A DNA stretch of 64,000 bases from an uncultured Thermoplasmata archaeon (lineage in GTDB: Archaea; Thermoplasmatota; Thermoplasmata; Lutacidiplasmatales; UBA184). Where the stretch lies: the NCBI GenBank assembly GCA_963749205.1, contig CAVVLW010000009.1, positions 53,622-117,621 of the forward strand. Reading direction: 5' to 3'. The position numbers and the translations under genes were made by a program. Below, piece after piece: positions 7,973 to 25,455 of this stretch. Position 1 is the first letter of the stretch. Every line of letters starts with the position of its first letter. The notes under the pieces are model-generated. The model was not told the DNA's origin. It ran no database searches and worked only from the letters and a program-made list of their open reading frames with translations.

Positions 7973-8236
7973 ATGCGGCTCCAGCAGAAGGGAGACTCGC
8001 CCGTCCAAGGGATGCTTCGGAAGAACATCACAATCACGCCGGACGAGGAGGAGTTCCTCGCCCGCCACCCTGAGATTAACCAGAGCGCGCTGTTCCGGCA
8101 GATCGTGGAGAGCCTGATGCTCGCCGAGCGCAGCCCGAGCGTGGCGTCGACCCAGCAGGTTCGCCTCGGGAAGGCGGTCTACCGGTCGGGCGCGATCATG
8201 TTCCAGAGGCCGACCGAGAAGCGCACGGAGCGTTGA
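7973..8236 (+). CDS. small ribbon-helix-helix-like protein
   Basis: RKNITITPDEEEFL...INQSALFRQIV is a beta-alpha-alpha RHH pattern. Confidence 0.6.
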   Translation: MRLQQKGDSPVQGMLRKNITITPDEEEFLARHPEINQSALFRQIVESLMLAERSPSVASTQQVRLGKAVYRSGAIMFQRPTEKRTER

Positions 8237-9055
8237 GACCCGACGCCCGCGCGGGAGCCTCGCCGTCCCGGAGTCGTGGTCCCACTCCGGTGAGCGCCGG
8301 TAGCCTGGCGTCATCCGCGCGCGAATAGAGGATGCCTTCGACGCCCGGGGTTCCGTTCCAGGCCGCCCGGGCGGTCGGTGCATCCAGCACCTCGAGAGCG
8401 TGCCGGGAGATTAGGTGGCCGAACGCCCAGCTCCTACGGCGGGCGAGGTCGGTGAAGTGCGGGGCATAGTGCCCCCCTCCGACCCCAAGCGCGACGCGGT
8501 CGAGAGGGTCCGGCGCGATCTCGGGGATCACGCGCGCCAGTATTCGTACCGCTTCCTCGGGAGGATGGGGGGCAGTGCCGTATCCGATCTCGACGAAGAA
8601 CGCGGGGAGCTCCACCTCAGGACCGTGGTGGGTCGACTCGAACGTTACGGCCACCTGCGCGCCGCGCGCAACCTCGTCCAGCCCGCGCAGCGCCGCGGTC
8701 ATCCGACGCGGGTCGGTGGGGGCCAGAATCCGTGGTCTGCCGCCGACCTCGGCGTTCGGGCCGGGATTTCCGAGGGGGTGCACCGTAAGGCACTCGATGT
8801 TCTGTTCGCTCCGGTGGATGGAAGGGAAGATGAGGGTCGGGTGTCGGCCCCGCAATTCGGCCGGAAGTCGAAGGTCGACCCGTTCGTCGTGGATGTGAAG
8901 GCCCGGCCGGGCAGGAGGAAGGAGTCGGGGCCTAACTTCCGGATAGGGGCCCCGTCCACGACCCATCCCGTGGCCTCGCGCGTCCCCCAGTGGTCCGCCA
9001 CGAGCGAGGCGACCGGGTCGACCGCCGACACGAGTACGACATACGGTGAGTCCAT
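8196..9055 (-). CDS. dtdA: archaeal D-aminoacyl-tRNA deacylase (DTD2), frameshifted
   Basis: DPVAS N-terminus, SIHRS, LTVHPLGN, ESTHHGP, FVEIG, GGGHYAP, FGH. Confidence 0.9.
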
Positions 9056-9387
9056 CGACCCGTCACTGCCGGGAGGCTCAAGAGATTGCAGGGACCGGTC
9101 GGTGGCCGTCCGTTGGGGAAAGACGCTTCGGGGCGATCTCAGGGGCTTGTAGCCTCGAGCCTGGCCCGGGCTCTTCGGCAATCTGAGCTCTGAGAGAGCG
9201 GGAGGTGTCCTCCCCGAGAGGTCCCGAGTTAAGTGGGGGGCGTGATCCGAACGCCGAAGATCTACCGAACCCCGCGTTTCCAAAGAGGTCCTAGCAGGGG
9301 CCCGGTCGTTCGCGGGGACCCCGCTGCCGAAACTACTTGAAGCGGGGGGGCGCATCTTACCGACGCTGGCGACACTCCTCGAGAGGG

Positions 9388-10297
9388 ATGCCGCAGGGGG
9401 TCCACCGCGGCCGCGAACAGTCCATCCGCCCCAGGGACCGAACTCCGCATCTCGACGGGCAACCGCGGCCTGGACTCGATGCTCGAAGGTGGGGTGATCG
9501 CCCGGCGCCCGTATCTCCTCGTGGGCCCGGCGGGCACCGGAAAAACCACACTCGCGCTACAGTTCTTGTGCGAGGGGGCGCGTCGCGGCGAGCGTTCCCT
9601 CTTGGTCAGTCTCGAGGAGCCACCGAACGAATGCCGGTTCAACCACCGGGGCCTCGGTCCCGAGTTCGAACGCGTCGAGGTGTTCGACGCTGATCCCGGA
9701 CGTCATGCACTACGAACGGGTACCGTTCAAGGATATTTCGGCGGTTCGCTCGGCGATGCCGTTCAGCCATGTGCCGTTCGTCATCCGACGTACCCCGGAG
9801 CTCACGGGCGTCGAGGTGACGATCACCGCACTCGAGCAGATGCTCCGCAGCGAGGTCGCCCGTCTCGGGTACGCTCGGGTCGTCATCGATTCGCTGACCG
9901 CGCTCCAGTACTTCTGCATGAAGGGACTCGACGAGGTCGCCGGCGCCCAGACGTTCCTGCGGTTCCTCTCGGACCTCCAGGTCACGACGTTCCTCACGGT
10001 CGAGTCCTCGCTCGAGGAGGTCGACTCGGTCGAGCGGATGCTCGCCCGCGGAGTGATCCGATTGTTTCGCTGGGAGCAAAACGGGTCGACGGTCCGCGCG
10101 ATCGGGGTGGAGAAGTTCCGCGGCAGCTCCCACGACGTGAGGCTGCACCCTTACCGTATCGGCCCCGACGGCCTCGACATCAACGTCGGGCTCACGATCT
10201 CGCGGCGAGGCGGCAAGGCGTGGAGGAGGCCCTAAGGACCGAGGTTGGAAAAACCGGCGATTTCGTCGGAGCGAAATCGGAACCGCCGCGCGAGTGA
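9388..10297 (+). CDS. RAD55/KaiC-family RecA-superfamily ATPase, frameshifted
   Basis: TGNRGLDSMLEGG, Walker A GPAGTGKT, SLEE, VVIDSLT, VEKFRGSSHD. Confidence 0.88.
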
Positions 10298-10585
10298 CCG
10301 AGAACAGCGACCGGGTCGGACGAGATTTCCCCCTTGGGGATGGTGCTCCCGGCGGAAGTTTCCCGGGCCTGTCCGTGAGGGCCGGCCGTTTTGAACCCGC
10401 GTCAGAGGCTCGAGAGGCCTCTATCCTTGACCACTAGACTACGGGAGCGCCCGGGCTCCGTAGGGGGCTCGCTCTTTGAGCCTTTCTCCGTGGGCTACGG
10501 GGGGGCCCCCATCCTTCCGCCCATCGGCGGCAGATAGTGCCCCCGGGCCGAAGCCCCTAAGAGGCCCCCCGTTCCTCTTCCGTCC

Positions 10586-11041
10586 GTGACCCCGCCCGTG
10601 AAGGCCCGCAGTGGCCACATCCTCCTCGACCCGAAGCGCTCGTACCAGGACCTCGTCCGGGTCTATCCGGAGATCCACCGGCGCGTGGTCGAGATGAATC
10701 GACCGTTCGTGAAGGAGACCGACCCCCTTCTCCCCGAGGTACTGCTCGATGAGAATCTCCGGGACTTGAAGGGGGATCGCAAGCCCACCGGATACAACCG
10801 GGAAGATGCCTTCGGCCTCCGCCTCATCTTCCCGCTGTCCGATGAACGGCGGGCGGAGTTCTATTTCACGAAGCCGGCGCGGTGCCAGGAAGTCGTGCAG
10901 ATCACCGAACAGGTGTCGGTCCTGCTCCGCCGCCGCGGCATCAAGCACACGGTCGAGTACGATCGCCTACCGCTCGGCCCGCCGCGCGGACCTCCGGGCC
11001 TTCCCCCCATCGGGGCGGCGACCAGCTTCGCTTCCAGTTAG
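10586..11041 (+). CDS. hypothetical protein
   Basis: Intact ORF with typical codon usage and a globular composition; no family recognised. Confidence 0.6.
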   Translation: MTPPVKARSGHILLDPKRSYQDLVRVYPEIHRRVVEMNRPFVKETDPLLPEVLLDENLRDLKGDRKPTGYNREDAFGLRLIFPLSDERRAEFYFTKPARCQEVVQITEQVSVLLRRRGIKHTVEYDRLPLGPPRGPPGLPPIGAATSFASS

Positions 11042-11045
11042 ACGG

Positions 11046-14000
11046 CTACGGGTCGCGGGGCGGCCGACGGAAGGGCCAGAACGCGGCAGGAGGCGACGCG
11101 GCGGGGGCCGCCGCCGGAGCGGCGGCGGTCGCCCCGGGTACCGCTGGGGCGGGTTCTCCCTGGAGGAGGCGAAGAGCCTCACGCGCCTTCTCGAGGGCGG
11201 CCGGGTAATCCGACTCTCGGAGGCGGATGGATTCGGCGAGCAGCTGGCGGGCCTGGGTCGTGTCGACCCGGCTCTGGTGGGCGCGGGCGAGCGCCGCGTC
11301 GATCAGGTAGTGGAGGTTCAACAGCTCCCGGTGCAGCGACTTGCGAAGGTTCAGCTCTTCCTCGGCGGTAAGAAGGGCGCGCCCGGCGTCCAACAGGTGA
11401 CCTTCCCGCTCGAGCGCTTCGATCTCGTGGAGACGCTCTTGGACGGGTCCGACGCTGACATGGAGCCCTTCCTGGGCGAAGTTCAACTCGGTGGCGACCT
11501 CCTTGAGCCGTCGCGAGAACGGCTCGCGGACCGCCTTCACGAGGGCGGGGAGCGCTTCCGCGAGCAAGCGACTGGCTTCCTCGAGCTTGCCGGCATCGGT
11601 GGCGCTGCGGGCCTCGCTGAACGTTTGCATGACCGGGGTCGTGTCGAGTCCGAGTCGTTCGCCGACCCAGAGCTGCGCCTTCAGTTCGACGATCTGAGCT
11701 TCGACGCGTTCCCTTCGGTGGCGACGGAGGAGCTCGAGCTCGGAGCGAACGAGGTCGAGCGCGGCCGGGAAGTCGCGTTTCTCCCGGAGGGCCCCGAGGT
11801 GCCGGCGGACCTCCTCGCGGCGGGCGGATTCGGCCGCCGAGACGGCGCCGGTATGGAGGGCGTCCGCCTCGACCTCGCGCCAGCGGACGTCGACGACGGT
11901 CTCGAACGCGCGGCGGCTCGCGAGCTCGCCACGCTCGATCGCCTCGCGCGCCTGCTTCCATTCCCGGGCGCGGAGCGCGGACTCCCCTTCGGCCACGATC
12001 GCCTCGACGGGGTCGAGCTCGGTCGTGAGTTTCTCGCGACGGCCTTGTTCGACCACCCGGCGAAGCTCGCCGAGAGGGCCGGCGAAGAGCCGCTCGATCG
12101 CCCACCGGGCCATCTCGGTCGCCTCGCGGGCGGCCCGGATCGACTCCGGGTAGTGCCCACCGTCCGAACGCCGACGGGCGTCGGTGAGGCGCGCCGTCGC
12201 CTCGGTGCCGTCGGCGCCGAGCCCAGTCGCCTCCGAAAGCTGCCGCTCGGCCGCGGCGAGCGCGTCCTTGGCGCGGCGATGGTTCTCGCGGACGACACCG
12301 AGCGCGTCCGAAGCCGCGAGCGCGTGCTCGAGGACGGAAGGATAGGAGTGCTCTTGGAACGCGGTCTTCGCGGCAGCGACCTCTTCGGCCGCCTCGGGCG
12401 CGACCACCCCCTCGCTCTGAGCTCGATTCAGGGAGCGCTCGGCGGCCTGGACCGACCCCTCCGCCACGCGGCGCTGGAGGTCGGCCCGTTCGAGTTCGGA
12501 TTCGCTCCGGCCCGCGAGCTGGAGGGCTTCGACCGCCTTCCCTTCGTCGAGCGCGAGCCGGGCCTGGTGGAGGAGATTCTCGGCGATGGTCGTGTCCCCG
12601 CCTTCCCGGCGGAGCCGGGTGAGCATCGCCTGGAAGCTCGCGAGGGTCTTCGACACGTGTTGGTACGTCGCTTGCAACAGCTCCCGCTCGAGTGGGCCTC
12701 CGAGTTCGACGACTCGGGCGTACTGCCGCTGGGCGAGGCCGGTCTCCAACCGCTCCATCGCGGAGCGCAGCGAGGGGACCTCGACGTGGAGGAGGTCCGC
12801 CTGGGCGAGCGCCTCGCGCGCCCGTTTTGCGACCCGCTCGGCGTGTTCGACGAACCCGCGCGTGTCGACGAACTCGGCGCGCGCCTCGTCGAGGAGGGCC
12901 GCCGCGCCCGAGGGCACCGGGAGGGCGATGCGCCGCCGCGCCTCGGAGAGAGGCGCGAGGATGCGGTCGACGTCGACCCCGGCGCCCCGCGCGATGTCGA
13001 GGTCGCGTTCGAGTCCCCGCAGGTTCTCCTCCAGCACCGGACGCACGAGCGCGACGACCTCCTCGTGGACGATCCGTGCCTGGGTGCGGGTCGCCTCCGG
13101 GGGAGCGGTCGCCTGCTCGGTGCGCATCCCGGCGAGCCGCGACGCGAACGACTCCATCGGGATCCCCAGTCGGCGCCCGTCCTCGATCATCCGTTCGAGC
13201 TCGGTGAGGAATTTCCCGGTCTCGGCGCGGGCTTCCTCGTCCCCGAGGCCCCGCTGCACCGTCTCCAGTAACGCACGAGCTTGGTCGAAGTCGAGGGCCT
13301 GGAACGCGACACGCGCGTCGCGAAGTGGCTCGTAGAACGGGTTCGGGTCGGTACCGGACTCTCGGACGCGACCGAGCACTTCCTGGGCCCGGTTGAGTCC
13401 CTCTACGATCTCCTGGGCGGTGCTCCAGGTGCGCTGGGCCGCCTCCTCGAGCTGCGTCGCCGCCCGGTACGCCTCCGAGTACTCGCCGGCCCGCGCAGCG
13501 GATTGTGCGGAGTCGAGCTGCCCTCGGAATTTCATCAAGTCAAGACCCATCGTCTCCAGCTCCACGAGGGCGAGCTTCGCGTGGGAGACGGCCTCCTCGC
13601 TCCGCAGCAACTGTTGGCTCTGGGCGCGCTTGCGGATCTCCTGGGAGGCCCGCGACGCCTGGACGAAGTCGCCCATGTTGAAGATCTGTTGGACTTCGTC
13701 GATCTGTCGTTGGATCTCGTCGCCCGCGCCGCCCATGGCCTCTAGCACCTGTCCTTCGACCTCGAGCCCTTCGACAAGGGCGGAGGCGTGGGCGGCAAAG
13801 ACCGAGGCAAAATCCCGTTCGGCTCGCCGGAGACTTTCGATCGACCCGACCAGGTCCCGCTTGACCCGAAGCGTCACGTCCGCGTCGGCCAGGAGCCGGC
13901 GGGTAGGGGCTGCGAGCGCTTCGTCCGGGATGTCCGAGAAGCCGCGTTCCATCTCTTCGATGCGGCGGGCGACGTACGGTTCCGCGGCGGTGCGGAGGCC

Positions 14001-15570
14001 GACCTCGACCTTCGCGAGCTTTTCGACGCCCTCCGCGAGGTTCCCCGACTCGAGCAGGGCGTGGACCTCCGTCATCGCCGCGTCCGTTTCCGCCGGTAGG
14101 AACCCACGCTCGCGGGCGTACCCCCGGACCCCGTCCAGCGAATTCCATCGTTGGAGGAAGAACTGCAGCGCCTCGCGGCCGATCGCGAGGACGGTCTCCT
14201 GCAGCAGCTGACGGGCCGCCGGCGCCTCGGCCCGCTCGATGTGCGTGCGGACGCGTTGGATCTGCGTGTCGAACGTCTCCGTAGCGAAGTGGACGCGCCG
14301 CAATCGTTCGAGCATCTCCTCGACCGCGGCGAGTTCGTCGCGCACCGTGTCGAGGTCCTCGGTGAGCTGGCCGACTCGGTCGACCGCCTCCTGGCTTGCG
14401 GCCAGCGCCTCGGAATAGATCTTCAGGCGGAGCGCCTCGCGCGCGCGATTCATCGCGGCGAATACCGTCGCTCGGGTCCCGGCCGAGGCGGCGGGCCTCG
14501 GCGATCCTCGGTCGGACCTCGTCCAATAGGCCCGCGACGACCGCCACGATCGGCTCTTCCGCGGCGCGCCGGGCCTCGGTGAGGAGCGGGGTGATCTCAA
14601 GCGGGGAGGCGGTGGTCAGGCGTGCGGAAGCTTCCTCGACCGCCTGCTGGGCGGTCGTCGGGTCCACCCCATACTCCCGCGTCGCGGTCAGGGCCGTCGT
14701 CAGCGAGTCGAGCGCCTGGATCCCACGTTCACGGAGCCCTTCCCCGACGTCGACCAACGCGTCCTCCATCGCTCGCACCGTTTCGGGCCAGCGTTCGGTC
14801 GTCGCATCGGTGTCGGCGAGAACCGCCGTGTCGAGCTTCGACGTGGTTGCCCCGTACTCGCGGGCCGCGGCCACCATTCGGGCCGCGGCCGCGCGCACGT
14901 CGTCGCGGCGGGTCTGCGCCTCGGGCAGCCCTTCGGCGAGCGAGCGGCGGATCTGGTCGATCGCCTCGACCACCCTGCCTTCGGCCGCGGGGGCGGACGC
15001 GGCGTCGATCAGCTCCTCGAATTCCTTCCGACGTTCGGGCGAAAGAACGGCCCAGTCTGCGACCTCCAGCGCTCGGGTCCGTGCAAGGGTGACATGCTCC
15101 TGCTGGGCGGTCGCGAGGGCGGCCTCGACCTTCGCGAGGCGTCCGACGTGGTCCGCCCACGAGGCACCTTCCGGAGGGCGCTCGAGCTGACGGAGTTCCT
15201 TCTCCACTTCCGGAGGCACGGTGATGCCGGCGCCGGCGAGGCTGCCCGCGGCCTCCACCGTGCGTTTCCGGCGGGACTCGATCGTGCTCGGGACGGTCTT
15301 GCCGAGATAGTCCGAGAGCGCCTTGGCCTGAAGCTCGACCCCATCCCAGTCGGAACGACGGGCGAGCTCGCGCAACTGGACCAACCGTTCCGGGGCCTCG
15401 GGAGGAGAGATCCCCAGGGTCTCGAGGAGCGTGACCTGCTCTTCGACTTCTTTTTGCAAGGCTTCTGCGGACTGCCGCTTTTTCTTGAGGGCCTCGGCCT
15501 TCTCCTGGAGGATCCGGGTGAGGCGGGAGGACCCGACGCTGCCGATATTACCGGGCCCTGACGTTGGACT
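11046..15570 (-). CDS. giant (~1500 aa) alpha-helical repeat / coiled-coil protein, frameshifted near 14470
   Basis: ORFs 13540-15459 and 11046-14600 join into one Ala/Glu/Arg-rich helical protein with recurring G-x-D...A..LL..A..A...G.Y..A units. Start uncertain. Confidence 0.75.
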
Positions 15571-15706
15571 CCCCCTAGACCCCCAGAACCGTACAACAGC
15601 GATCGGGCATCCGGGGCAATCGATTCATGCCCGGACCCCCTTATAAATCAAGCGCGGAGCTCCCTCGGTGGCAGCGTGCGGGACGGGGGGCCGGCGACCC
15701 CGACGA

Positions 15707-16093
15707 TTACTTCCGGGTGATCCGGCGTTTTCCCATCGCATCGAGGTACTGCACCTCGCCGCCCGGAGAGAGCTGGCCCTTGACATCCGGCTCGAGCGCG
15801 AGGAAGAACGTCTCGTACGTTTCGAGGTCCATCAACTGGACCTCGGTCTCGGTGAGGGAGAGGACCTGAGCCGACCGTTTTCCGATGAGGGGGACCTGGA
15901 CCTTGTGGGTCACCGGGAACACGACGCTGCGCTTGCGTTCGTCGAAGATCCCCATCGCGTCGATCCGGGCCTTCGCTTCCCCGTGCTTCCCCGGTTTCGA
16001 CATCTGAATGCTGAGGATGCGGCACGGCTCCTCGTCGATGAGCATGTACCGCCCTTCCCTCAGTTCGCGAACTTCCTGTTGGGTCCAGGCCAT
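15707..16093 (-). CDS. eif5a: translation initiation/elongation factor 5A
   Basis: Hypusine loop [12 protein letters not shown]; [11 protein letters not shown]. Confidence 0.97.
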
Positions 16094-16235
16094 CGAGACT
16101 CCTCGGCCGGTCGGGGAGGTTCGGGGCGGCATAACCCTTGCGTGAACTGAGCAGAGACTCGGGCCATCCCCTCGGGCCGAGGGTTTATTCGCGGGCTCCT
16201 GCCTAATGAGTTACCGGACCCGCGGTGACCAGCTG

Positions 16236-19200
16236 ATGGCGACGCTTTCCGAGAAGCTGAACCCCGCGGCAATCGAGCAAGAGGTCCGGACTCTCTGGAC
16301 CGCCCAGGGGTTGCCGCCCCCGCAGGAACCGATCGGGCCCCCTGAGGGACGGGTCGCGCACCAATTCCTCGGGGCGTTCGCGCCGCAGGAGGCGGGTACC
16401 TCGTCGCCCAACGGGCGATCGCCGCCGACGTGGATGCCCGTGCGATGGCCCTCGCCGGTCGCCGTTCCCGGGGCGTCCTGAGGAAGGAAGAAGGGGGTCC
16501 GGCAACGCCTACTCCCCGGATGGAACCGGTACTCACCGCGCTGGGGGTCTGGGTCGGGGGTCTCGACGGTCATCCGTGGGATGGCCTTCCCCGTCGGGCC
16601 GAGGTGCAAACGCTCGTTGGACGACTCGCGCACATGGGCGCGCTCGCCGTCCGCGACGTTTCGCTCCGGATCTGTCCCGCCTGCGGGATGGCCCGGTCTC
16701 CCGAGCGCATCGTCTACCAGGAGGAGAACGGGGAGACGTTGCTCGTCCGTTTCGCCTTCCCGGACAAGGACCGTGCGGTTTCCGCGCTCGTTTGGACCGA
16801 CGCGGCCTGGCGCCTTCTCGGCACGAGCGCCCTGATGGTCCACCCCGAGCTCCCGTACGTGATCGCGCGTTATCAACGCCGGGGGCTGGACGAGCTCGTC
16901 TTCACGTCGAAGTCGTCCCTCGAGCGACTCCGGGGTTGGCTGCCCGGCGCGGAGTTCGAGGTACTCGAGGAGCATCCGGGCCGCCACTGGGAAGGAACGG
17001 CGTACGTCCACCCGTTGCGCCACGAGTTCCCGATGGGGGGGAATCTCGAGCCACCGGGCGGAACGATCGTCTCCGTCGCCGACGTCAGCGATACGGGAAC
17101 TGGGGTGGTCCCCCTCGTCCCCGGTCACGGAGGCACGGACACTCAGATCGCCGACCGACTGAACGTTCCCGGCTGGCCACTCATCACCCCGAAGGGGCGG
17201 TTCGACGTCCTTTTCGTGCACAAGTACGCCGGCCTCGAGCTCGAAAGCGGCAGTCAATTTGCGGTCCGCGACCTGGACGAGGACGGCGCGATCTTCGCGC
17301 GCCTCCGGGTCCGACGGGGAGTCCCGCATTGCGTCCGATGCGGCACTCCGCTGATCTGGGCCCCGGGACGGGCATGGTGCCTCGAGCCGTCACGCCTCCC
17401 GGCCGAGCGGGTCGCGCTCTACCGTTCGTTGCTCCCCCGCGACCGTGCGATCGAAAAGCTCGAGGCCGTTCCGTGGCCGGTCAGCGAGCCCCAGCGGAGC
17501 GACGACCCGCTCGCGATCTCGCTGCTCGAGTGCACCTCCTGCGATCGGCTCGAGGCGTTGGGAAAGGAAAACGAGCGCTGCGTGTGCGGCGGACGCCGGC
17601 GGGTCGTCCGCCGTCACCTCCTTCCGGCGTTCGATGCGGCCGCGGCATCCTGGGCGTCCGTCGACCCGTTTCCCACCGCCGATACCGCGCGCCTCTACGT
17701 GAACGAACGCCGCCGCGCACCCACGGTCGTGCACCACATCGCCGCGATGAGCGGGGTCGGCGGGAACGTCGGCGAGGTCCGGCTCACCCTCCTTCCGACC
17801 GTTCCCGATGCGGACCTCCTCCCGCTGATCGCCGCGCACGGGGCGGACGCGGTGCGCGCTGCGTTGGTCCGAGCTCAAGACTCGGAAGGAGCGACCGCGA
17901 CGTTCGCTGAGCGGTGTGCTCAGGAAGGTCGACGTCTGGAATCGTTCTGGCTGACCGCACGCGCGGTCCTGGCTTCGATCGATGATGCGACGCTCTCCAC
18001 CTACGCGCAGCCGATCGGAGGCTCGCTCGGGGACCTCGAGCCGGAGGACCGGGCGCTCCTCGCGCGATTCGAGCGCCTGCGGATCCAGTGCGTCGTCGAC
18101 TTCGACCGCTCGGCCCCGCACCTCGTCCACCGGCACCTCTTCCGGTTCCTGGAGAACGATTTCGCGGCGTACCGCGAGTGGGTGGCCCCGCGGGTTGCGC
18201 TCGAAGGGACCCCTCCCTCCAAACGAGCCGCGTTGCACACGCTCGTCCACACGCTATTCAGCTGCACGCAACTCCTCGGTCCCATCGCTCCCCACACTTC
18301 CGAAGCGGTGCACCGCGCCCTGCGTCGGAGCCGAGCGAGCCTGTTCCAGGAGCCGGCGGTCGAGGTCGACCGGGCTCTTCTCGACCCCGCGCGGGCGAAG
18401 GCGTGGGACCGGTGGATTTCGGTGATTCGAGCGCTCGAGCGTTTTCGGCGACAGGCGGGCGTCCCGCCGAACGGGCCGATCCCGTCGGTCGCTCTCGTCC
18501 TCGACTCGGAGGCGGTCGCCGAGGAGTATCGCGCTGAAGCTCCGACCCTCGAGCGGCTGGCTCGGGTCCGGAAGCTCGAGGTCGGTTCGGCCGGCGCCCC
18601 CTGGGCGGGGCGGCGGCGGCAGCTGCGACCGCGGGAGGCCGAGATCCAGCGCGTCTACGCGAGCCGGGCGGCTCAGATCATCCACCTGTTGCGACGCATG
18701 CCCGAACGAAAGGGGACGGACCCAGAGTCGGGCCCGGGTTTCACGATGATCGTGAACGGGCAGCCCACCCAGATCCTCCCATCGATGATCGCCTGGGAGG
18801 AGACGCTCCCCGAACGATTCGTTCCCGTCGATTGGCCCTCCGGCGAGCTGTACGCGGAGTTGCCCGCCGGGTGCGCGCTCCCACGGGCGCCGCCGCCCCC
18901 GCTTTCGCCCGACGCGTTCCGGGTGGTGGCCCGGATCGGGCAGCGTGTTCGGTCCGTTCCCGCGAGCGCGCCCCCGGTCGTGATCCTCGCTGCGCCGCCG
19001 CCGCTCGCCACGGAGCTCTCGAACGTTTTGGGCCGCGTCGGAAACTATCTCGGCCTCGCAGAGCTGCGGATCGTGGCGTCCGACAGCGAGCTGCCGACCC
19101 ACGGACGCGGATTCGGCCGGACCAAATCCGGAACGGCTTGGTCGTTCTACGTGTCCGACCGGAGCGGCGACGTCGCGCCCGTCGAAGCTGCGCTCGGTGC

Positions 19201-21221
19201 GGTCCCACGGCGGCCGCGTGCGCCCCGCGTTCGCGCCCGGGGACCTCGCCCCCACGGTCCAGAACTACGCCGACGCCGAGGTGATCTCCCGCGAGACCGC
19301 GGTCCGGGCCCTCGGGGAGGAGCTGGACGAGATCCTGGGGGCTCCCCTGCTCGGCCCCACGAAAGTGGCGGCGGCCTGGGATGCAGGCCTCCGGAACATC
19401 GACGCTTTCCGGGAAGCCCCCTGGATCACCCTCGTGGGACTCCCCGGGTTCGGAGTCCCGGTGGCGACGGCGCTCGTCACGAAGTTTGGGGGAACGGTGC
19501 CCCCGAGGCCCCCAGCCCCGAGTCGGCGCGGGGGTCCGCAACCGCCGGGTGACGTGGACGACGCCGGACCCCCCGGTCATCCTCAATGGGTCGAGCCCGG
19601 CGTTCGAGTCACCGCCGCGCTGCCTCCCACTTTCGTGGTGGTTCGGCCGCCGCTTGTGGTTCCCCCTTCTCCTCCCGCGTCGTCCTATCTCCCCCTCACG
19701 CCGCCGCCCGCCACTCCGATGTTGGGAGGTCCCGCGCCGACCGCTCCCCTGCCGGCGCCGCTCCTGCCCGAGATCGCTCCCGTGATCGAGGTCGTAGCCA
19801 CGGAAAATGAGGCGACATCGCCGACGGTGCCGCTCGCGCCTCCGGCCGCAAGGGACGAACCCGGGGGTCTCTCGCCCGCTCCTACCGAACTCCCCGACGA
19901 ACTGCTCCCTCCCATGGTCGAATCCGCCGTCGCAGCCGAATCCGCACCCCCGCCCCGGATTCGGAGCTCACCGAGGAGCCGATTTCGCCCGCTCCCGCAG
20001 AAGACGAGTCGTGGCAACCCGCGCCCGGCATGCCACCGGAGTTACCCGCCACAGAAGGGGAAGCACCGGAAACGGGGCAGCCCGCAACGCCGGTATCCGT
20101 GGAAACGGGAGACGAGGTCGCTCCAACTACTCCGGCCGAGCACGTTCTCGAAGAGACCGGTCTGCCGAGCGAGTCGCCGTCAGTGACAGTATCCGAGCCC
20201 GCGCCGGACGTTCCTTCCGCGGAGGAGGGCGTTGGGCTCCGACCCGAGGAACTCGACATGCCGGCGAGCGGAGCCCGAACTGATTCCCGTCGCTGCGTCG
20301 CCGGATCTCCTGGCGCCTTCCGGGCCACCGGAGGTCCCTACCCCGGAAATGGATCCGACGCCGGTGACGGGACCAGAACCGGCGCCGGTCACCAAGTCCA
20401 CGGATCTCATGCCAGCTTCCGGAGCGCCGGAGCTCCCGACGATCGTCGAACCGGAGCTGCCGAGCCCGGGCGTGGAACCGCAATCCCTCGCCCCCCCCGC
20501 AATCGCTGCGTCAGAGACACCTCCCACGACGCTGCCACCGGAGCCGTCGCCGGGGCCCCCGACGTCCCAACTTCGGGTCGAGCCGATCGCAGGATTCCCT
20601 CCGCCCCCACCCGCAGAACCGACCCCGCTGGCGCCCGAACTGCCTCCTCCGCCCTCACTCGCGGTGGGAGCGGCTCCACCGGCCCCGTCGATCGCGGAGG
20701 CGCTGGGTTTTCCCCCGATCGAGAACGCCCTTACGGTGCCGGCGCCGGAGGCGCCCCCCGCACCGCCTACGGGGGGGATCGACCTCGCCGTCGGTCCGAG
20801 CTACTTCCCCTCCCTCGAACGATTCCTCGAAGCGACGGCGGCGGGCCACCAGGGCATCTGCGTCGTGCGAGATTCGCCCGAGAGGGTTCGAGCGTATGTC
20901 GGTTCGAGGCCGGTCGAGATACGGTGGCTCACGAACATCGGCCGCGGACCGACCTTGAAACCGAGCGACCTCGATGGATTTTCCGCGTTCCTCGCCCACG
21001 CGGTCTCCACCGGTCACGTCACCGCGTTCTTCCTCGAAGGCGTCGAGTACCTCGTCCGGTTGCACGGGCTCGACCGGGTCGTGGAACGGATGGTCGACTT
21101 CGACCGGCTCGCGCGCGAGCACTCCGCGCGCGTCTGGGTCCCGCTCAACCCGAAGCTGCTCTCGCCCGCCGAGCTGGACCGGTTCGTGACCGCGTTCGGG
21201 GGGGGGACGCCCATCTCTTGA
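16236..21221 (+). CDS. degenerate isoleucyl-tRNA synthetase paralog fused to HhH, Pro/Glu-rich linker and DUF835 (several frameshifts)
   Basis: IEQEVRTLW N-terminus, CP1-like WTDAAW and GTGVVPLVPGHGGTD, Zn knuckles, HGADAVR, LGPIAPHTSE. HIGH and KMSKS are absent. HhH (LGPTK...LPGFG) near 19350-19490; DUF835 (WLTN, FLEGVEYL) near 20780-21221. Confidence 0.8.
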
Positions 21222-21297
21222 CGGGCGGCGCTGCGGCATCTGCCCCCGGAAATTGCAAAAGATAGGTTGATTAGCAATCAGCAGCGTGGGCCTGCAG

Positions 21298-22047
21298 ATG
21301 GGAGCTTCCGCGCGGCCGCCGTTCCGGCGCCGGGCGGCCGTTGTGGTCGGGTTCGTTTCCCTCGCCCTTGCTTTCCTCGTGGTCGCACCCATGGGAGCCC
21401 TCGCGGCTCCCTCGAATGCGTCTCCCCTCACCATCAAAGAAGGTCCGGCGGTCGGCGAGCTGACCGCACGCGCGCTCTGGAACGGGGTCAACATTGTCAC
21501 CGCGAACACGACCAGTTCGGCGTTTCACATCTCCTTCAATGGCGCGGTCAACGTAGTCTACACCTTTGCGCAGCCGCCGGGGGCGGGGGCCGCTTGGTCG
21601 ATCAATGATGCTCGCCTTCAGATCTTCTACTTCGGCTTCGCCCTTGGCACCCGCGACATCACCGAATCGGTCGGAATGGTATCGGGCACCATCACCATGG
21701 GTAACTGGAGCACGGGACCTCTGCAGTACATCCTCGCCGGGACGTACCTCCTGACGGCGAGTCTGATCGCGGTGAACGGCACCACGGCCTGGAGCCAGTC
21801 GTTCTGGGTCGACGTGGCCGCGCCGTACTACATCCTGGCGCTCCTCCCGATCGTACTGATCTTGCTCTCGGTCTACGAGGCCTACGCTCTCTGCTGCTCC
21901 GGAAAACACGTCTCGAGGGGCAAAGTACCCGGCGGTGGCACCCCGCCCGCGACCCCGGCCTCCACGGGGGGCGGGGGGTCGGGCCGGGTCATGGAACCTC
22001 CCGACCCCGCGGTTGCGTCCACCCCACCGCCCGGAGGAGCGACGTGA
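21298..22047 (+). CDS. secreted/membrane-anchored hypothetical protein
   Basis: Signal-peptide-like N-terminus, beta-rich middle, C-terminal TM helix and Pro/Gly tail. Confidence 0.75.
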   Translation: MGASARPPFRRRAAVVVGFVSLALAFLVVAPMGALAAPSNASPLTIKEGPAVGELTARALWNGVNIVTANTTSSAFHISFNGAVNVVYTFAQPPGAGAAWSINDARLQIFYFGFALGTRDITESVGMVSGTITMGNWSTGPLQYILAGTYLLTASLIAVNGTTAWSQSFWVDVAAPYYILALLPIVLILLSVYEAYALCCSGKHVSRGKVPGGGTPPATPASTGGGGSGRVMEPPDPAVASTPPPGGAT

Positions 22048-22475: not shown

Positions 22476-23552
22476 GTGACCGAATGCGCCGCGTGCGGCC
22501 GGGCGAACCTGGACAGCGCGCAATTCTGTGGCGGCTGCGGGCGCCCCCTGTCGACGGCGGTTCTCCCCCCTCCTCCGCCCCCGCCTCCGGCTGCTCAGGG
22601 AGGGAAACCCGCCCACCGTCTCGGGCTCCCCCGCTGCCCCCGGGGGCGCGCGCCTCCTCCGGATCCTGCTCCACCCGAACCCGCGGATGCTGCTGGCCGT
22701 GCTTCTCGTCATCGCGTTCGTGCTGGGCATCGTCTCCCTCGGGACGGCGTGGTGGTCGTACTCCTCGTCGGGTGGCGGCACGAGCCATTCCTTGTACTTT
22801 CTCCCGGGGGGAACTACAACGTGACGTGTTCGGGCTCAGGCTGCGCCGGCTTTTCAGCGGGGTCGTTTCCCTACAGCAATTTCGGCGGTTCGATCGTCAC
22901 CCTTTACGGAGTCGTTCTAGGGCTCATGGGATTGGGCGTGGCGCTGACCGGCCTCGCCGCGATCGTCGCGGTGCTCGCGGTGCTCGGGCGGAAAACCGGA
23001 TGGTGGCAGCGGTCGGGGAGTTTCGTGTTTGTGTTCCTCTCGGTGATCACGACGTTGATCGCGCTCGTGGCGGCCGTCACCGCGCAGCCGGGCGCGTTCG
23101 CTTCGAACACCACGTTCCCTGGTCTCGGTTCGGGAGGGGCGTCCCCGCTGACCTCGTTCTGGGGGTCGAATCCCGCGGGGACCGCGACGTGGGGGGCCGG
23201 AGTCGGCTGGTACGTGGCCCTGGTGACGGTCGTCCTCCTCAGCGTGGTCACGGCGATGATCATCGTGCATGGCCGCGAGCGCCTTGCCGTTCCGGGACGA
23301 CGGACCCGCGCCGCCGCACCTCCGCCCGCTCCGGTGGTCCGAGGGTACACCGCTCCACCCTCCGCTACGGCTGGTTTGAGACCCGCGGTGATGCGGCCTC
23401 CCATTCACACAGCGACGACGGTCCGACCTCCTCCGCCCACGATGTCCGGCCCAACGGAGGTTCCCGAGATGATCGCGTGCCCCACGTGCGGAACGGAGAA
23501 CCTTGCCAAGTCCCGCACGTGCTCGTACTGCCAGCGTTCGCTCCGATCGTAG
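22476..23552 (+). CDS. membrane protein with N- and C-terminal zinc ribbons, frameshifted
   Basis: CAAC..CGGC at the N-terminus, CPTC..CSYC at the C-terminus, about 4 TM helices. Confidence 0.75.
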   Translation: MTECAACGRANLDSAQFCGGCGRPLSTAVLPPPPPPPPAAQGGKPAHRLGLPRCPRGRAPPPDPAPPEPADAAGRASRHRVRAGHRLPRDGVVVVLLVGWRHEPFLVLSPGGNYNVTCSGSGCAGFSAGSFPYSNFGGSIVTLYGVVLGLMGLGVALTGLAAIVAVLAVLGRKTGWWQRSGSFVFVFLSVITTLIALVAAVTAQPGAFASNTTFPGLGSGGASPLTSFWGSNPAGTATWGAGVGWYVALVTVVLLSVVTAMIIVHGRERLAVPGRRTRAAAPPPAPVVRGYTAPPSATAGLRPAVMRPPIHTATTVRPPPPTMSGPTEVPEMIACPTCGTENLAKSRTCSYCQRSLRS

Positions 23553-23697
23553 CCGAGCGCGTGGGCAGGAAATCTCTGCCCGCGAGGGCGAATATTCGGC
23601 GTACGTTGCCCAGCGAGGGGCGGTCCGGACGGACCGCGCGAGGCGTTATCCGTCCGCACCCCTCGGGGAGAAGGTCCCGGCGGGGACCTCCGTTGCC

Positions 23698-25455
23698 ATG
23701 ACAACCACGTTGGATTCCGAAGCGAGCGCGTCGAGCGAGTTCCATGCCTTCCTCGACCGGGACTGGAAACAGTGGCTGGAACAGGCTCCCGAAGTGGCGA
23801 CGGCGGTCGGCGCTCCCGGGCTCAACGACCGGTGGACCGATGACTCGGCGGCCGGGGTCGCCGCCCGACGCGTTCACCTCGCCGAGAGCCTCGCGAAGCT
23901 CGACCGCTTCGACCGGGAGGCCCTCACCGCTGCCGAGCGCCTGAACCACGACCTCCTCCGCGAACTGCTGGTCAGCACCGAGGAGGGGCTCCAGTTCGGG
24001 AACGACCCGTTCCCGTTCCGATTGGGCTCGCCCCACAACCTTCGGATGCCGGTCAACCAGATGGAAGGGGTTCAGCTCAGCGCGGCCGACATCGGCGACA
24101 TCCAGCCCCTCGTGACCGTGCGCGACTTCCAGGACCTGCTCGCCCGTCTCGATGCGTTCCCCATTGTCGTCGAGAACAACCTCGCGCTGCTGGACGCCGG
24201 GCGACGGCTCGGGTTCGGTCCGCCGAAGATCACGCTGGTCGGCATCCCGGGCCAGATCACCTCCCAGATCACTCCCGACCCGATGTCGAGCCCCGTGCTG
24301 AAGCCGTTCCGAGAGTTTCCGGGCACGGTCCCCACCGCCGAGCGGCCGCGGCTCACTTCGCAGGCGGTCCAAGTGTACCGCGACCGGGTCGTACCCGCGC
24401 TCTCGAAGTTGCGCGAGTACCTTCACACGGTCTACCTTCCCACGGCCCGGGAGACCATCGGCGCGAGCGCACTCCCGAACGGGCCGGCGCTTTACTCCTT
24501 CCTCGTTCGCTGGCAGACCACGACGGGCCTCACCCCGCAGCAAGTGCACGAGATCGGGCTCGCGGAGGTCCGACGGATCCGTGCCGAGATGGACCAATTG
24601 ATCCGGACCGACCGGGTTTGCGGGGAGCTTCGCGGAGTTCAACGAGTTCATTCGTACCGACCCCCAGTTCTTCTACAACACCCCGGAAGAGCTCCTCGAT
24701 GGGTATCGCGTCATCGCGAAGAAAGTCGACCCCGCACTCTCGCGAGTGTTTGGCCGCCTGCCGCGGCTCCCCTACGGCGTCCTCCCCGTACCGGACTACC
24801 GCGCCCCCACCGCGCCGGGAGCGTACGCTACATGCCCGGTGCTCCCACGACGGGCCGACCGGGATATTTCTACGCGAACACGTACAAGGTCGGGGTGCGC
24901 CCTCGATGGGAGATGGAGGCACTGACCCTCCACGAGGCCGTGCCCGGCCATCACCTTCAGATCTCGCTCGCCCAGGAACCGGAGGAGCTGCCCGAGTTCC
25001 GTCGTCAGACAGGATTCACGGCGTTCGTCGAGGGGTGGGGGCTCTACGCCGAGAGCCTGGGGGAAGAGCTGGGCCTCTATCGGGACCCGTACTCCAAGTT
25101 CGGCCAGCTTACCTACGATATGTGGCGGTCGATCCGCCTCGTGGTCGATACCGGGATGCACGCGCTCGGGTGGAGCCGGGAACACGCGATGAAATTCTTC
25201 CGAGAGAACAGCGGGAAGAGCGACCAGGACATTCAGGTCGAGGTCGACCGGTACATCGTCTGGCCCGCTCAGGCGCTCGCCTACAAGATCGGTCAGCTCA
25301 AGATCCGCGAGCTCCGGACCCTCGCCGAGCGGAAGCTGGGGGACCGTTTCGATGTTCGTGCGTTTCACGACGTCGTCCTCGAGCAGGGGGCCCTCCCGCT
25401 CAACATTCTGACCGAGCGCGTCGACCGGTGGATTCAGTCGCGGACCGCCGCGTGA
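23698..25455 (+). CDS. DUF885 family protein (putative metallopeptidase), frameshifted
   Basis: HEAVPGHH, FVEGWGLYAE, RLVVDTGMH, EVDRY, QALAYKIG. Confidence 0.92.
   Translation: MTTTLDSEASASSEFHAFLDRDWKQWLEQAPEVATAVGAPGLNDRWTDDSAAGVAARRVHLAESLAKLDRFDREALTAAERLNHDLLRELLVSTEEGLQFGNDPFPFRLGSPHNLRMPVNQMEGVQLSAADIGDIQPLVTVRDFQDLLARLDAFPIVVENNLALLDAGRRLGFGPPKITLVGIPGQITSQITPDPMSSPVLKPFREFPGTVPTAERPRLTSQAVQVYRDRVVPALSKLREYLHTVYLPTARETIGASALPNGPALYSFLVRWQTTTGLTPQQVHEIGLAEVRRIRAEMDQLIRTDRVCGELRGVQRVHSYRPPVLLQHPGRAPRWVSRHREESRPRTLASVWPPAAAPLRRPPRTGLPRPHRAGSVRYMPGAPTTGRPGYFYANTYKVGVRPRWEMEALTLHEAVPGHHLQISLAQEPEELPEFRRQTGFTAFVEGWGLYAESLGEELGLYRDPYSKFGQLTYDMWRSIRLVVDTGMHALGWSREHAMKFFRENSGKSDQDIQVEVDRYIVWPAQALAYKIGQLKIRELRTLAERKLGDRFDVRAFHDVVLEQGALPLNILTERVDRWIQSRTAA

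Follow-up and report, generated by a model that had tools for sequence, protein, structure and literature searches.

The window, a 64,000-nucleotide stretch of DNA from an uncultured Thermoplasmata archaeon, carries a gene that encodes an IleRS-like module (pseudo-IleRS), a probable helix-hairpin-helix (HhH) domain, a proline-rich linker and a DUF835 domain, in that order (Table 1). Its start agrees with the MATLSE... start of its homologs. An earlier sequence-only reading had proposed this fusion and had quoted a series of motifs; all of the quoted strings are present in the implied frames, and in intact homologs one ORF spans the fusion with HhH domain, disordered linker and DUF835. In the public gene call of the contig, the protein is represented only by a fragment of 290 aa.

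Table 1. Features of the pseudo-IleRS locus (window coordinates)
Feature	Position	Strand	Remarks
aIF5A gene, divergently transcribed	15710..16093	-	adjoins the pseudo-IleRS gene wherever the flank of a related locus is long enough
Divergent intergenic region between aIF5A and pseudo-IleRS genes	16094..16235	.	142 bp
Whole gene: pseudo-IleRS / HhH / Pro-rich linker / DUF835	16236..21221	+	no internal stops, 1,662 codons
Five in-frame pieces of the gene	16236-16397, 16397-19162, 19164-19952, 19952-20269, 20271-21221	+	
IleRS-like module	16236..19162	+	~975 aa: Rossmann halves, CP1, Zn knuckles, anticodon-binding helices, type-2 C-terminal domains
HIGH-loop position	16365..16441	+	reads FLGAFAPQEAG(TL)VAQR..., without His; hhalign to the genome's own IleRS; 0/120 homologs with H.GH
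CP1 peptide WTDAAW	16793..16810	+	canonical WTTTPW
CP1 motif GTGVVPLVPGHGGTD	17096..17140	+	universal Asp retained; His after GTGxV replaced by Pro
Strand and short loop LTLLPTVPDADL...HGADAVR	17783..17857	+	expected KMSKS-loop site
Anticodon_1 (PF08264) match	18047..18481	+	aa 540-684 of ORF 16430-19552
C-terminal alpha/beta domains	18470..19162	+	aligned with type-2 IleRS C-terminal tRNA-binding region; model residues ~746-985
HhH domain	19263..19493	+	model helices 1014-1101; HHH_5 23.9 bits in intact L008 homolog; PDB profile matches
Linker	19494..20771	+	Pro/Ala/Glu-rich, acidic, variable
DUF835 / inactivated KaiC-like (RecA-fold) domain	20772..21218	+	without P-loop
Frame break 1: one C missing from C-run	16398..16398	+	C inserted behind 16398 in X1 and X2 contigs
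Frame break 2: one extra base, GAGCGG context	19163..19163	+	one letter absent from X1 contig
Frame break 3: one C missing from C-run	19952..19952	+	C inserted behind 19952 in X1 and X4
Frame break 4: one extra base, GAGCGG context	20269..20269	+	one letter absent from X1, X2 and X4
Motifs quoted earlier	IEQEVRTLW 16272-16298; FLGAFAPQEAG 16365-16397; CPAC 16673-16684; CVRC 17330-17341; CTSC 17531-17542; LTLLPTVPDADL 17783-17818; HGADAVR 17837-17857; LGPIAPHTSE 18275-18304	+	

The gene belongs to a sizeable family. At least 120 homologs share the architecture at 47-76% identity, and at least 112 of these (112 of the 120 best matches) are intact proteins of 1,380-1,819 aa with Anticodon_1 and DUF835 in one chain. 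Judged from these proteins, the recurrence of the architecture is far beyond chance. A relative is encoded in 100 species genomes, and all true members found belong to a single GTDB family of Thermoplasmata. NG86 dN/dS values are 0.12-0.27 for the synthetase part, 0.12-0.38 for the HhH domain, 0.25-0.64 for the linker and 0.07-0.22 for DUF835, so that purifying selection holds across the folded parts (0.07-0.38). The locus is a real, conserved archaeal gene under selection that encodes one protein of ~1,660 residues.

In the window sequence itself, four frame breaks divide the gene, close to where they had been guessed (near 16400, 19190, 19950 and 20270). Short-read contigs from three public runs of two studies (X1, X2 and X4) carry a compensating indel at all four breaks; these contigs are 95-99+% alike to the window and may derive from sister strains, so alone they are no proof of an intact gene in the window's own strain. 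Of the five indels in the stretch, three consist of a C missing from a C-run. Genome-wide, the assembly contains 592 same-strand frame switches without a stop (2.9 per 10 kb), compared with 44 in the 1.05 Mb covered by 54 related loci (0.42 per 10 kb), a density about 7 times higher. The valS gene of the same assembly is also split, at model position ~162, and a neighbouring gene for a 1,528-aa protein is split in the window and a single ORF in L008. Because of the compensating contig indels, the excess of frame switches and the split valS, the four breaks are errors of one base each in an assembly rich in indels, not decay.

It is most improbable that the gene is instead a genuine pseudogene, recently inactivated in the window's strain by four true frameshift mutations. 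The breaks are indeed present in the window sequence, and the possible sister-strain origin of the contigs (in record 7, 35 of 1,263 letters are different) would allow such a reading. Against this, the whole assembly is rich in frame switches, down to the essential valS, and the 1,662 codons hold no stop, deletion or other lesion besides the four single-base indels. The six differences from the contigs that fall in folded parts upstream of 19440, among the 40 listed of 81, are all synonymous. Pseudogene status was thus rejected, as the contigs restore all four frames, the assembly has an excess of indels throughout, and the dN/dS values of the folded parts are low. As a practical warning, the same kind of error splits hundreds of other genes in this assembly.

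Profile and fold both identify the first part of the protein, over its full length, as an IleRS paralog. The aminoacylation motifs, whose loss the sequence-only reading had seen in one member, are gone throughout the family: H.GH is absent from the first 150 aa of all 120 homologs, and [KR]MS[KR][ST] is found in none of them. In an hhalign comparison with the genome's own IleRS (probability 99.2), HLGH lies opposite a gap and LA, GWDCHGLP (the GWDxHGLP motif) opposite a deletion, and DQTRGW (DQxRGW) opposite N[DE]RRR. The structure model leaves only 7 residues between strand and helix at the expected KMSKS loop, and the other pairing that hhalign offers for KMSKS is AMSGV, without either Lys. 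The NCBIfam ileS model TIGR00392 scores 120.7 bits, below its 621.4 cut-off, and the Pfam tRNA-synt_1 model has no match at E <= 0.01, while Anticodon_1 scores 53.1 bits against a cut-off of 25.1. A canonical ileS is present elsewhere in the genome, intact and with 764.9 bits to TIGR00392. Since HIGH and KMSKS occur in none of the 120 homologs, GWDCHGLP is deleted and the ileS score is under the cut-off, pseudo-IleRS is, on these alignments, a type-2 IleRS paralog that is probably no longer able to activate an amino acid.

The loss of motifs was not accompanied by loss of the scaffold. The AF2 model has a pLDDT of 85.5, and its top Foldseek match is the type-2 IleRS 8c9d (E 3.5e-44 over ~1,107 columns), with yeast IleRS-tRNA complexes also among the best matches, indicating that the full-length type-2 IleRS fold is retained in the model. 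The CxxC pairs of the Zn knuckles are invariant. The share of invariant columns is 21-23% in CP1 and the CP2/Zn region and 8-9% in the Rossmann halves. The description "catalytically eroded" therefore stands as regards the missing motifs but not as regards decay, since errors of the assembly account for the frameshifts and the CP1 and Zn modules are the most conserved of all. We looked for the three findings that the sequence-only reading had named as speaking against it, namely real stops in the gene, homologs that keep HIGH or KMSKS, and an absence of purifying selection, and encountered none.

Within CP1, conservation and remodelling coincide. The Thr-rich peptide and His positions of CP1 are important for IleRS editing. 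The His after GTGxV is a Pro, and W[VT]D[AS][PA]W stands in place of WTTTPW in 118 of 120 members. The universal editing-site Asp is invariant, CP1 is noted to hold two invariant Asp, and the family adds invariant residues of its own (D189, H298, H329, Y331, R345 and D346). A new enzymatic site would be an equally good reading of these family-specific Asp, His, Tyr and Arg. The protein might still be an enzyme, whose remodelled CP1 pocket hydrolyses or modifies aminoacyl-tRNA or another substrate, by trans-editing or a new activity, with the DUF835 tail serving only to localise or oligomerise it. The high conservation of CP1 (21% invariant columns) and its retained and newly fixed residues fit this view, but with the Thr-rich peptide and the His both replaced, we regard it as improbable.

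Downstream of the synthetase-like part, the HhH region is modelled as a helical bundle at residues 1014-1101. In the intact L008 homolog, HHH_5 (PF14520) reaches 23.9 bits, below its gathering score of 27; a precomputed PF14520 match exists on 19 of 120 homologs, and a PDB profile search over the region matches the L32e N-terminus and Pol X. The linker that follows is 133-555 residues long, acidic, proline-rich and disordered. DUF835 (PF05763) scores 39.4 and 41.9 bits, over the 33.1 gathering score, and the domain is modelled with an AF2 pLDDT of 89.9; its Foldseek matches include FlaH 4yds (5e-5), KaiC, PH0284 and Rad51 (TMq 0.55-0.65). The Walker A motif, GK[ST], is absent at the P-loop place in 24 of 24 alignment rows, where VGPSYxPxLxxFL follows strand 1. 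The earlier description of DUF835 as an inactivated KaiC-like (iKaiC) domain is borne out by this RecA/KaiC fold without a P-loop. The DUF835 subfamily of pseudo-IleRS is found in this fusion only.

An HhH domain followed by a RecA core is also the domain order of RadA/Rad51. The C-terminal half could accordingly be a RadA-paralog-like module, making the protein a scaffold in DNA or RNA transactions whose synthetase-like head binds nucleic acid or protein and has nothing to do with the charging status of tRNA. Rad51 and DMC1 do appear among the Foldseek matches, and Pol X among the profile matches over the HhH. However, the best folds are FlaH and KaiC, Pfam gives DUF835, the long disordered spacer between HhH and core is unlike RadA, and the conserved neighbourhood is without repair genes. 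This explanation is accordingly considered quite unlikely. Compared with RadA/Rad51 themselves, the pseudo-IleRS tail shares the placement of an HhH ahead of a RecA-fold domain, but lacks Walker A and has a truncated core of ~150 aa.

The neighbourhood offers another candidate partner. In all 74 related loci with sufficient flanking sequence, aIF5A lies divergently upstream of the pseudo-IleRS gene. By analogy with EpmA, a LysRS paralog that acts on EF-P, pseudo-IleRS might bind the tRNA-like aIF5A, perhaps with the hypusine side chain in an acidic CP1 pocket, to which the two invariant Asp of CP1 would contribute. Yet all members belong to one GTDB family, so this synteny may simply have been passed down and tells us little. 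The gene for the 1,528-aa protein lies in the same aIF5A block and also occurs in genera of the same family where pseudo-IleRS was not found, and the adenylation site used by EpmA is absent from pseudo-IleRS. The chance that aIF5A is the partner is therefore slim. A KaiC-like gene in the window (9452-10181), ~6 kb upstream, has no counterpart in 80 related loci, and no candidate ATPase partner is conserved close by, which speaks against the proposed relay to KaiC-type ATPases; the genome has 15 matches to PF06745.

The reading we favour, with a probability of roughly 0.45, is that of one intact protein under selection, in which a non-catalytic type-2 IleRS paralog is joined through an HhH domain and a long tether to an iKaiC domain and would serve to read tRNA, the frame breaks being artefacts. 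The synthetase-like head would bind tRNA, and the remodelled, most conserved CP1 pocket would read the state of the tRNA 3' end as its ligand. Occupancy would be passed to the iKaiC tail, which would join or regulate KaiC-like ATPase rings. Such a relay of tRNA status through iKaiC, close to the sensor suggested by the sequence-only reading, is a plausible hypothesis.

In archaea, such a mechanism would parallel that of GCN2 and its pseudo-HisRS sensor. The HisRS-like domain of GCN2 is the eukaryotic sensor of uncharged tRNA, which binds uncharged tRNA and switches an output domain. Pseudo-IleRS shares with GCN2 the joining, in one polypeptide, of a synthetase paralog that lacks catalytic motifs to an output domain for signalling. 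The parallel is one of architecture only: pseudo-IleRS is archaeal, derives from a class I IleRS and not a class II HisRS, and ends in a KaiC-like domain without a P-loop and not in a kinase. To our knowledge, these archaea lack RelA and GCN2. The stronger proposal, that this soil and peat Thermoplasmata clade has a true GCN2 counterpart in which a dead IleRS reads tRNA charging via CP1 and switches a KaiC-type ATPase hub through tether and iKaiC, appears doubtful. Since members were found only among uncultured archaea of one GTDB family, the protein cannot serve archaea in general as a starvation sensor.

Canonical type-2 IleRS (P. megaterium IleRS2, 8c9d; yeast IleRS-tRNA, 8wnd) has the same full domain order and fold. 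Unlike it, pseudo-IleRS lacks HIGH, KMSKS and GWDxHGLP, has changed DQxRGW, the CP1 Thr-rich peptide and the His, and carries ~680 extra C-terminal residues. HisZ, EpmA/PoxA, AlaX and YbaK/ProX are duplicates of synthetases or editing modules in regulatory, protein-modifying or trans-editing roles, and are small and single-module. Pseudo-IleRS is likewise a synthetase paralog, but the entire synthetase is kept and a signalling-type domain is added. A table in PMC5847659 gives DUF835 as an iKaiC domain that serves archaeal response regulators as output. Like the regulators covered there, pseudo-IleRS places a C-terminal DUF835 with a RecA/KaiC fold behind an input module; unlike them, its input is a 975-aa synthetase paralog with an HhH and not REC/PAS, and its disordered tether is very long. 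Our literature search found no paper that describes a fusion of an IleRS paralog and DUF835.

Non-catalytic synthetase paralogs are among the few known cell devices for reading tRNA status, and we know of none described in archaea within a protein of signalling. In pseudo-IleRS, the complete IleRS scaffold has stayed under purifying selection in ~100 species after the loss of every aminoacylation motif, and it is joined to DUF835, a domain class proposed as archaeal signalling output. The protein is an expressible candidate for studying how some archaea sense translation status, which partners DUF835/iKaiC domains bind and what fates are possible for a CP1 pocket. If the stronger proposal of a GCN2 counterpart is true, tRNA status would be linked directly to cell signalling in these archaea.

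The gene studied encodes a protein that follows an isoleucyl-tRNA synthetase (IleRS) with its synthetic site lost, continues into a helix-hairpin-helix (HhH) domain and a Pro-rich linker, and ends in an inactive KaiC-like DUF835 domain. The window has a G+C content of ~69%. As overlapping long open reading frames (ORFs) are abundant in it, frames were assigned via homology. Using three intact homologs as tblastn queries, a single plus-strand gene was recovered whose frame shifts along its length, and a direct three-frame reading of the window agrees: frame 0 from 16236, frame 2 from ~16398, frame 0 from ~19163, frame 2 from ~19952, and frame 0 from ~20269 to the stop. The five pieces total 1,662 codons and contain no internal stop. 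The motifs quoted in the sequence-only reading are all present in the gene, in the frames that it implied. Within the fusion protein, Pfam recognises Anticodon_1 (53.1 bits, cut-off 25.1) and DUF835 (39.4 bits, cut-off 33.1), while the score for the NCBIfam ileS model, 120.7 bits, falls short of its 621.4 cut-off, and valS models score lower still.

Whether the four frame breaks are assembly errors or genuine lesions was addressed by comparing Logan contigs from four public short-read runs with the window over 16100-21300. Five indels were listed in all. Four coincide exactly with the frame breaks, which lie near the places guessed in the sequence-only reading, each mending the frame, and the fifth lies in an intergenic spacer (see table). 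Three of the five are a C missing from a C-run, and both extra bases (19163, 20269) occur in a GAGCGG context, which suggests systematic base-calling error, perhaps modification-linked.

Positions in the window of the fusion gene, its frame breaks and neighbouring features (X1, X2 and X4 are short-read runs)
Feature	Position	Strand	Detail
D-aminoacyl-tRNA deacylase (PF04414)	8199-9062	-	151.6 bits
KaiC-like gene (PF06745)	9452-10181	+	spread over two frames, break ~9688
151-aa protein	10538-11041	+	no family match
1,528-aa protein	11046-15624	-	split ~14462
aIF5A	15710-16093	-	divergent neighbour
Fusion gene	16236-21221	+	
C added in contigs X1, X2	behind 16398		frame break
One base fewer in contig X1	19163		frame break
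C added in contigs X1, X4	behind 19952		frame break
One base fewer in contigs X1, X2, X4	20269		frame break
Stop codon of fusion gene	21219-21221	+	frame 0
C added in contigs X1, X2	behind 21242		intergenic spacer
~249-253-aa predicted membrane protein	21286-22047	+	no family match
DUF885 protein	23503-25455	+	495 bits

The contigs are 95-99+% identical to the window and may originate from sister strains, in which case they would not by themselves vouch for this genome; the indel load of the whole assembly was therefore examined. A codon-model Viterbi scan, trained on the genome's own long ORFs, counted same-strand frame switches without an upstream-frame stop within 45 nt. It returned 592 candidates (2.9 per 10 kb), 32 of them in the window and the whole set distributed evenly among the contigs. 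Run as a control on 1.05 Mb of other assemblies, covering 54 related loci, the scan found 44 switches (0.42 per 10 kb), 15 of which fall within 24 kb of a single locus, L067, likely another indel-rich assembly. Other genes of the genome are also broken. The essential gene valS is divided, near model position 162, between two abutting open frames, as the Viterbi scan also finds, and the split 1,528-aa neighbour is a single ORF in L008, a locus carrying an intact fusion homolog, and in other genomes. The scan also reports two frame switches within the DUF885 gene, at 24612 and 24826. The genome comprises 2.03 Mb in 11 contigs with a marker-gene completeness of 60.6%, a value that is consistent with a long-read assembly with broken marker genes and is probably an underestimate owing to its indels. 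The four breaks in the fusion gene are thus almost certainly assembly artefacts.

The sequence-only reading had named an absence of purifying selection as the mark of a decaying pseudogene; such selection is found here. From 45 loci with a long ORF, 38 pairs share >72% identity in the synthetase part, and NG86 estimates for the 25 closest gave dN/dS of 0.12-0.27 in the synthetase-like part, 0.12-0.38 in the HhH domain and 0.07-0.22 in DUF835, although dS runs from 0.55 upward, with several pairs close to saturation. The linker gave 0.25-0.64 on an unreliable alignment. Among 40 listed out of 81 differences between window and contigs, all six in the folded parts before 19440 are synonymous; the linker holds 8 synonymous and 24 nonsynonymous changes, and DUF835 one of each.

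The synthetic site has been lost throughout the family. H.GH is absent from the first 150 residues of all 120 best homologs and a KMSKS-like motif from the same 120, extending to the family what had been noticed in the single gene. Searched with the Pfam catalytic-core model, the intact L008 homolog yields no hit at E <= 0.01. A canonical ileS, which the sequence-only reading had asked for elsewhere, is intact in the same genome, with HLGH, GWDCHGLP, WTTTPWT, GTGLVH...D and KMSKS. Aligned with this enzyme (probability 99.2, 655 columns, 25% identity), the family profile places a two-residue gap and 'LA' opposite HLGH, lacks GWDCHGLP and the segment behind it, and has N[DE]RRR opposite DQTRGW. 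KMSKS either pairs with AMSGV, both lysines being absent, or sits in a model loop just 7 residues long.

The scaffold, by comparison of structures, is that of IleRS. An AlphaFold2 model of a 1,107-aa homolog (P0005; 49 aligned rows, pLDDT 85.5, pTM 0.76) retrieved only IleRS at Foldseek ranks 1-19, led by the type-2 IleRS of P. megaterium (E 3.5e-44). The top alignments span ~1,107 columns and include the C-terminal tRNA-binding domain of type-2 IleRS. Yeast IleRS-tRNA complexes come next, ValRS appears at rank 20 and LeuRS later, and a PDB profile search concurs. All four CxxC/CxC pairs are invariant in the family. Invariant columns make up 21% of the editing-type insertion CP1 and 23% of CP2/Zn, against 9% and 8% of the two Rossmann halves, the inverse of the pattern of real synthetases. 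CP1 retains its universal Asp (D302) without exception; its Thr-rich peptide has become W[VT]D[AS][PA]W[RK]LL in 118 of 120 members, and Pro replaces His behind GTGxV, with D189, H298, H329, Y331, R345 and D346 as new invariant residues. The head is a tRNA-synthetase scaffold kept under selection with a dead synthetic site and a highly conserved, remodelled CP1.

The tail, likewise under selection, begins with an HhH of nucleic-acid type, runs on through a flexible tether and closes with an inactive KaiC-like domain. The HhH domain corresponds to helices 1014-1101 of the AlphaFold2 model; it scores 23.9 bits for HHH_5 in the L008 homolog, under the cut-off of 27, and matches the L32e N-terminus and Pol X in a PDB profile search. 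Measured in 44 members, the linker spans 133-555 aa (median 430); Pro accounts for 26% of its residues, Ala for 15% and Glu for 13%, its net charge per residue is -0.13, and scarcely any of its columns are conserved. A hydropathy window over 1.8 occurs in 17 of 120 family proteins. The last 161 residues are predicted to fold (pLDDT 89.9) and match FlaH, KaiC, PH0284 and Rad51/DMC1 in Foldseek; GK[ST] stands at the P-loop position in none of 24 aligned rows. The anatomy of the fusion protein and the artefactual nature of its breaks are given a probability above 0.9.

This architecture was found only in a narrow group of archaea. A word-seeded protein search (8,000 candidates scored) returned 299 proteins at E <= 0.001. 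The best 120 of these, all from Thermoplasmata metagenome-assembled genomes, are 47-76% identical and 1,012-1,819 aa long, with query coverage of 72-100% (>= 92% for all but one). PF08264 and PF05763 occur together in 112 of them, and PF14520 also on 19; the eight without DUF835 measure 1,012-1,620 aa, five being named 'partial' at source. Each is called 'class I tRNA ligase family protein', 'DUF835 domain-containing protein' or 'hypothetical protein' by its source. Among GTDB species genomes, relatives are encoded in 100 stretches, of which 80 loci were retained. Across 301 sampled genomes of the class, every strong match (E < 1e-100) falls in the GTDB family to which the window belongs, where 24 of 37 genomes have one (21/28 in genus g1 and 3/3 in genus g3), a tally that, like that for the 1,528-aa protein, includes one unpublished genome, G098, a g1 match. 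The remaining matches (E 1e-20 to 1e-36, 21-30% identity) are canonical IleRS. Exhaustive phmmer against 1.84 billion representatives showed a sharp step between the two: ~100 proteins matching in a single stretch are family members, many of them fragments, and two-stretch matches to ordinary IleRS start at ~E 1e-42. Searching with the DUF835 domain of the fusion retrieved only members of the same fusion, including a 290-aa fragment called on CAVVLW010000009.1 itself. Elsewhere in the genome a single DUF835-like protein is encoded (421 aa; contig C7, locus L087, 1759-3024, minus strand); it scores 28.2 bits, below cut-off, and its N-terminal 280 residues match no known family.

The surroundings are also conserved. 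aIF5A adjoins the fusion gene in 74/74 loci with enough flank, and the 1,528-aa protein stands beside aIF5A in 52/52. The latter has no Pfam or NCBIfam match and falls into unnamed Thermoplasmatota clusters in the ESM Atlas; it is present in 109 of the 301 genomes and so is not specific to the fusion. The 151-aa protein occurs in 47/47 loci with enough flank (74-97% identity over nine related loci inspected). Downstream of the fusion gene, 27 of 45 loci carry the predicted membrane protein, which has hydrophobic segments at both termini. The KaiC-like gene was considered as a conserved partner and rejected, as the overlapping window ORFs match 0/80 related loci. Across the genome, PF06745 matches number 15. 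The D-aminoacyl-tRNA deacylase lies ~7 kb upstream, and is found in 13 related loci. ARAGORN and Rfam detected no tRNA genes or Rfam families in the window.

In PMC5847659, the sole DUF835/PF05763 paper located, DUF835 is listed among the output domains of response regulators, as 'iKaiC' in the arrangement REC-DUF835; the words 'synthetase' and 'tRNA' do not appear there. The literature search, which covered main texts, returned nothing on an IleRS pseudoenzyme or on synthetase-like proteins with KaiC and tRNA in archaea; titles listed for Thermoplasmata isoleucyl-tRNA synthetase paralogs deal with rooting the tree of life. As for function, a sensor is a tentative proposal, to which we give rather less than even odds: the head would bind tRNA, CP1 may sense either the 3' end of that tRNA or some other ligand, and the tail would couple this to KaiC-like ATPases.
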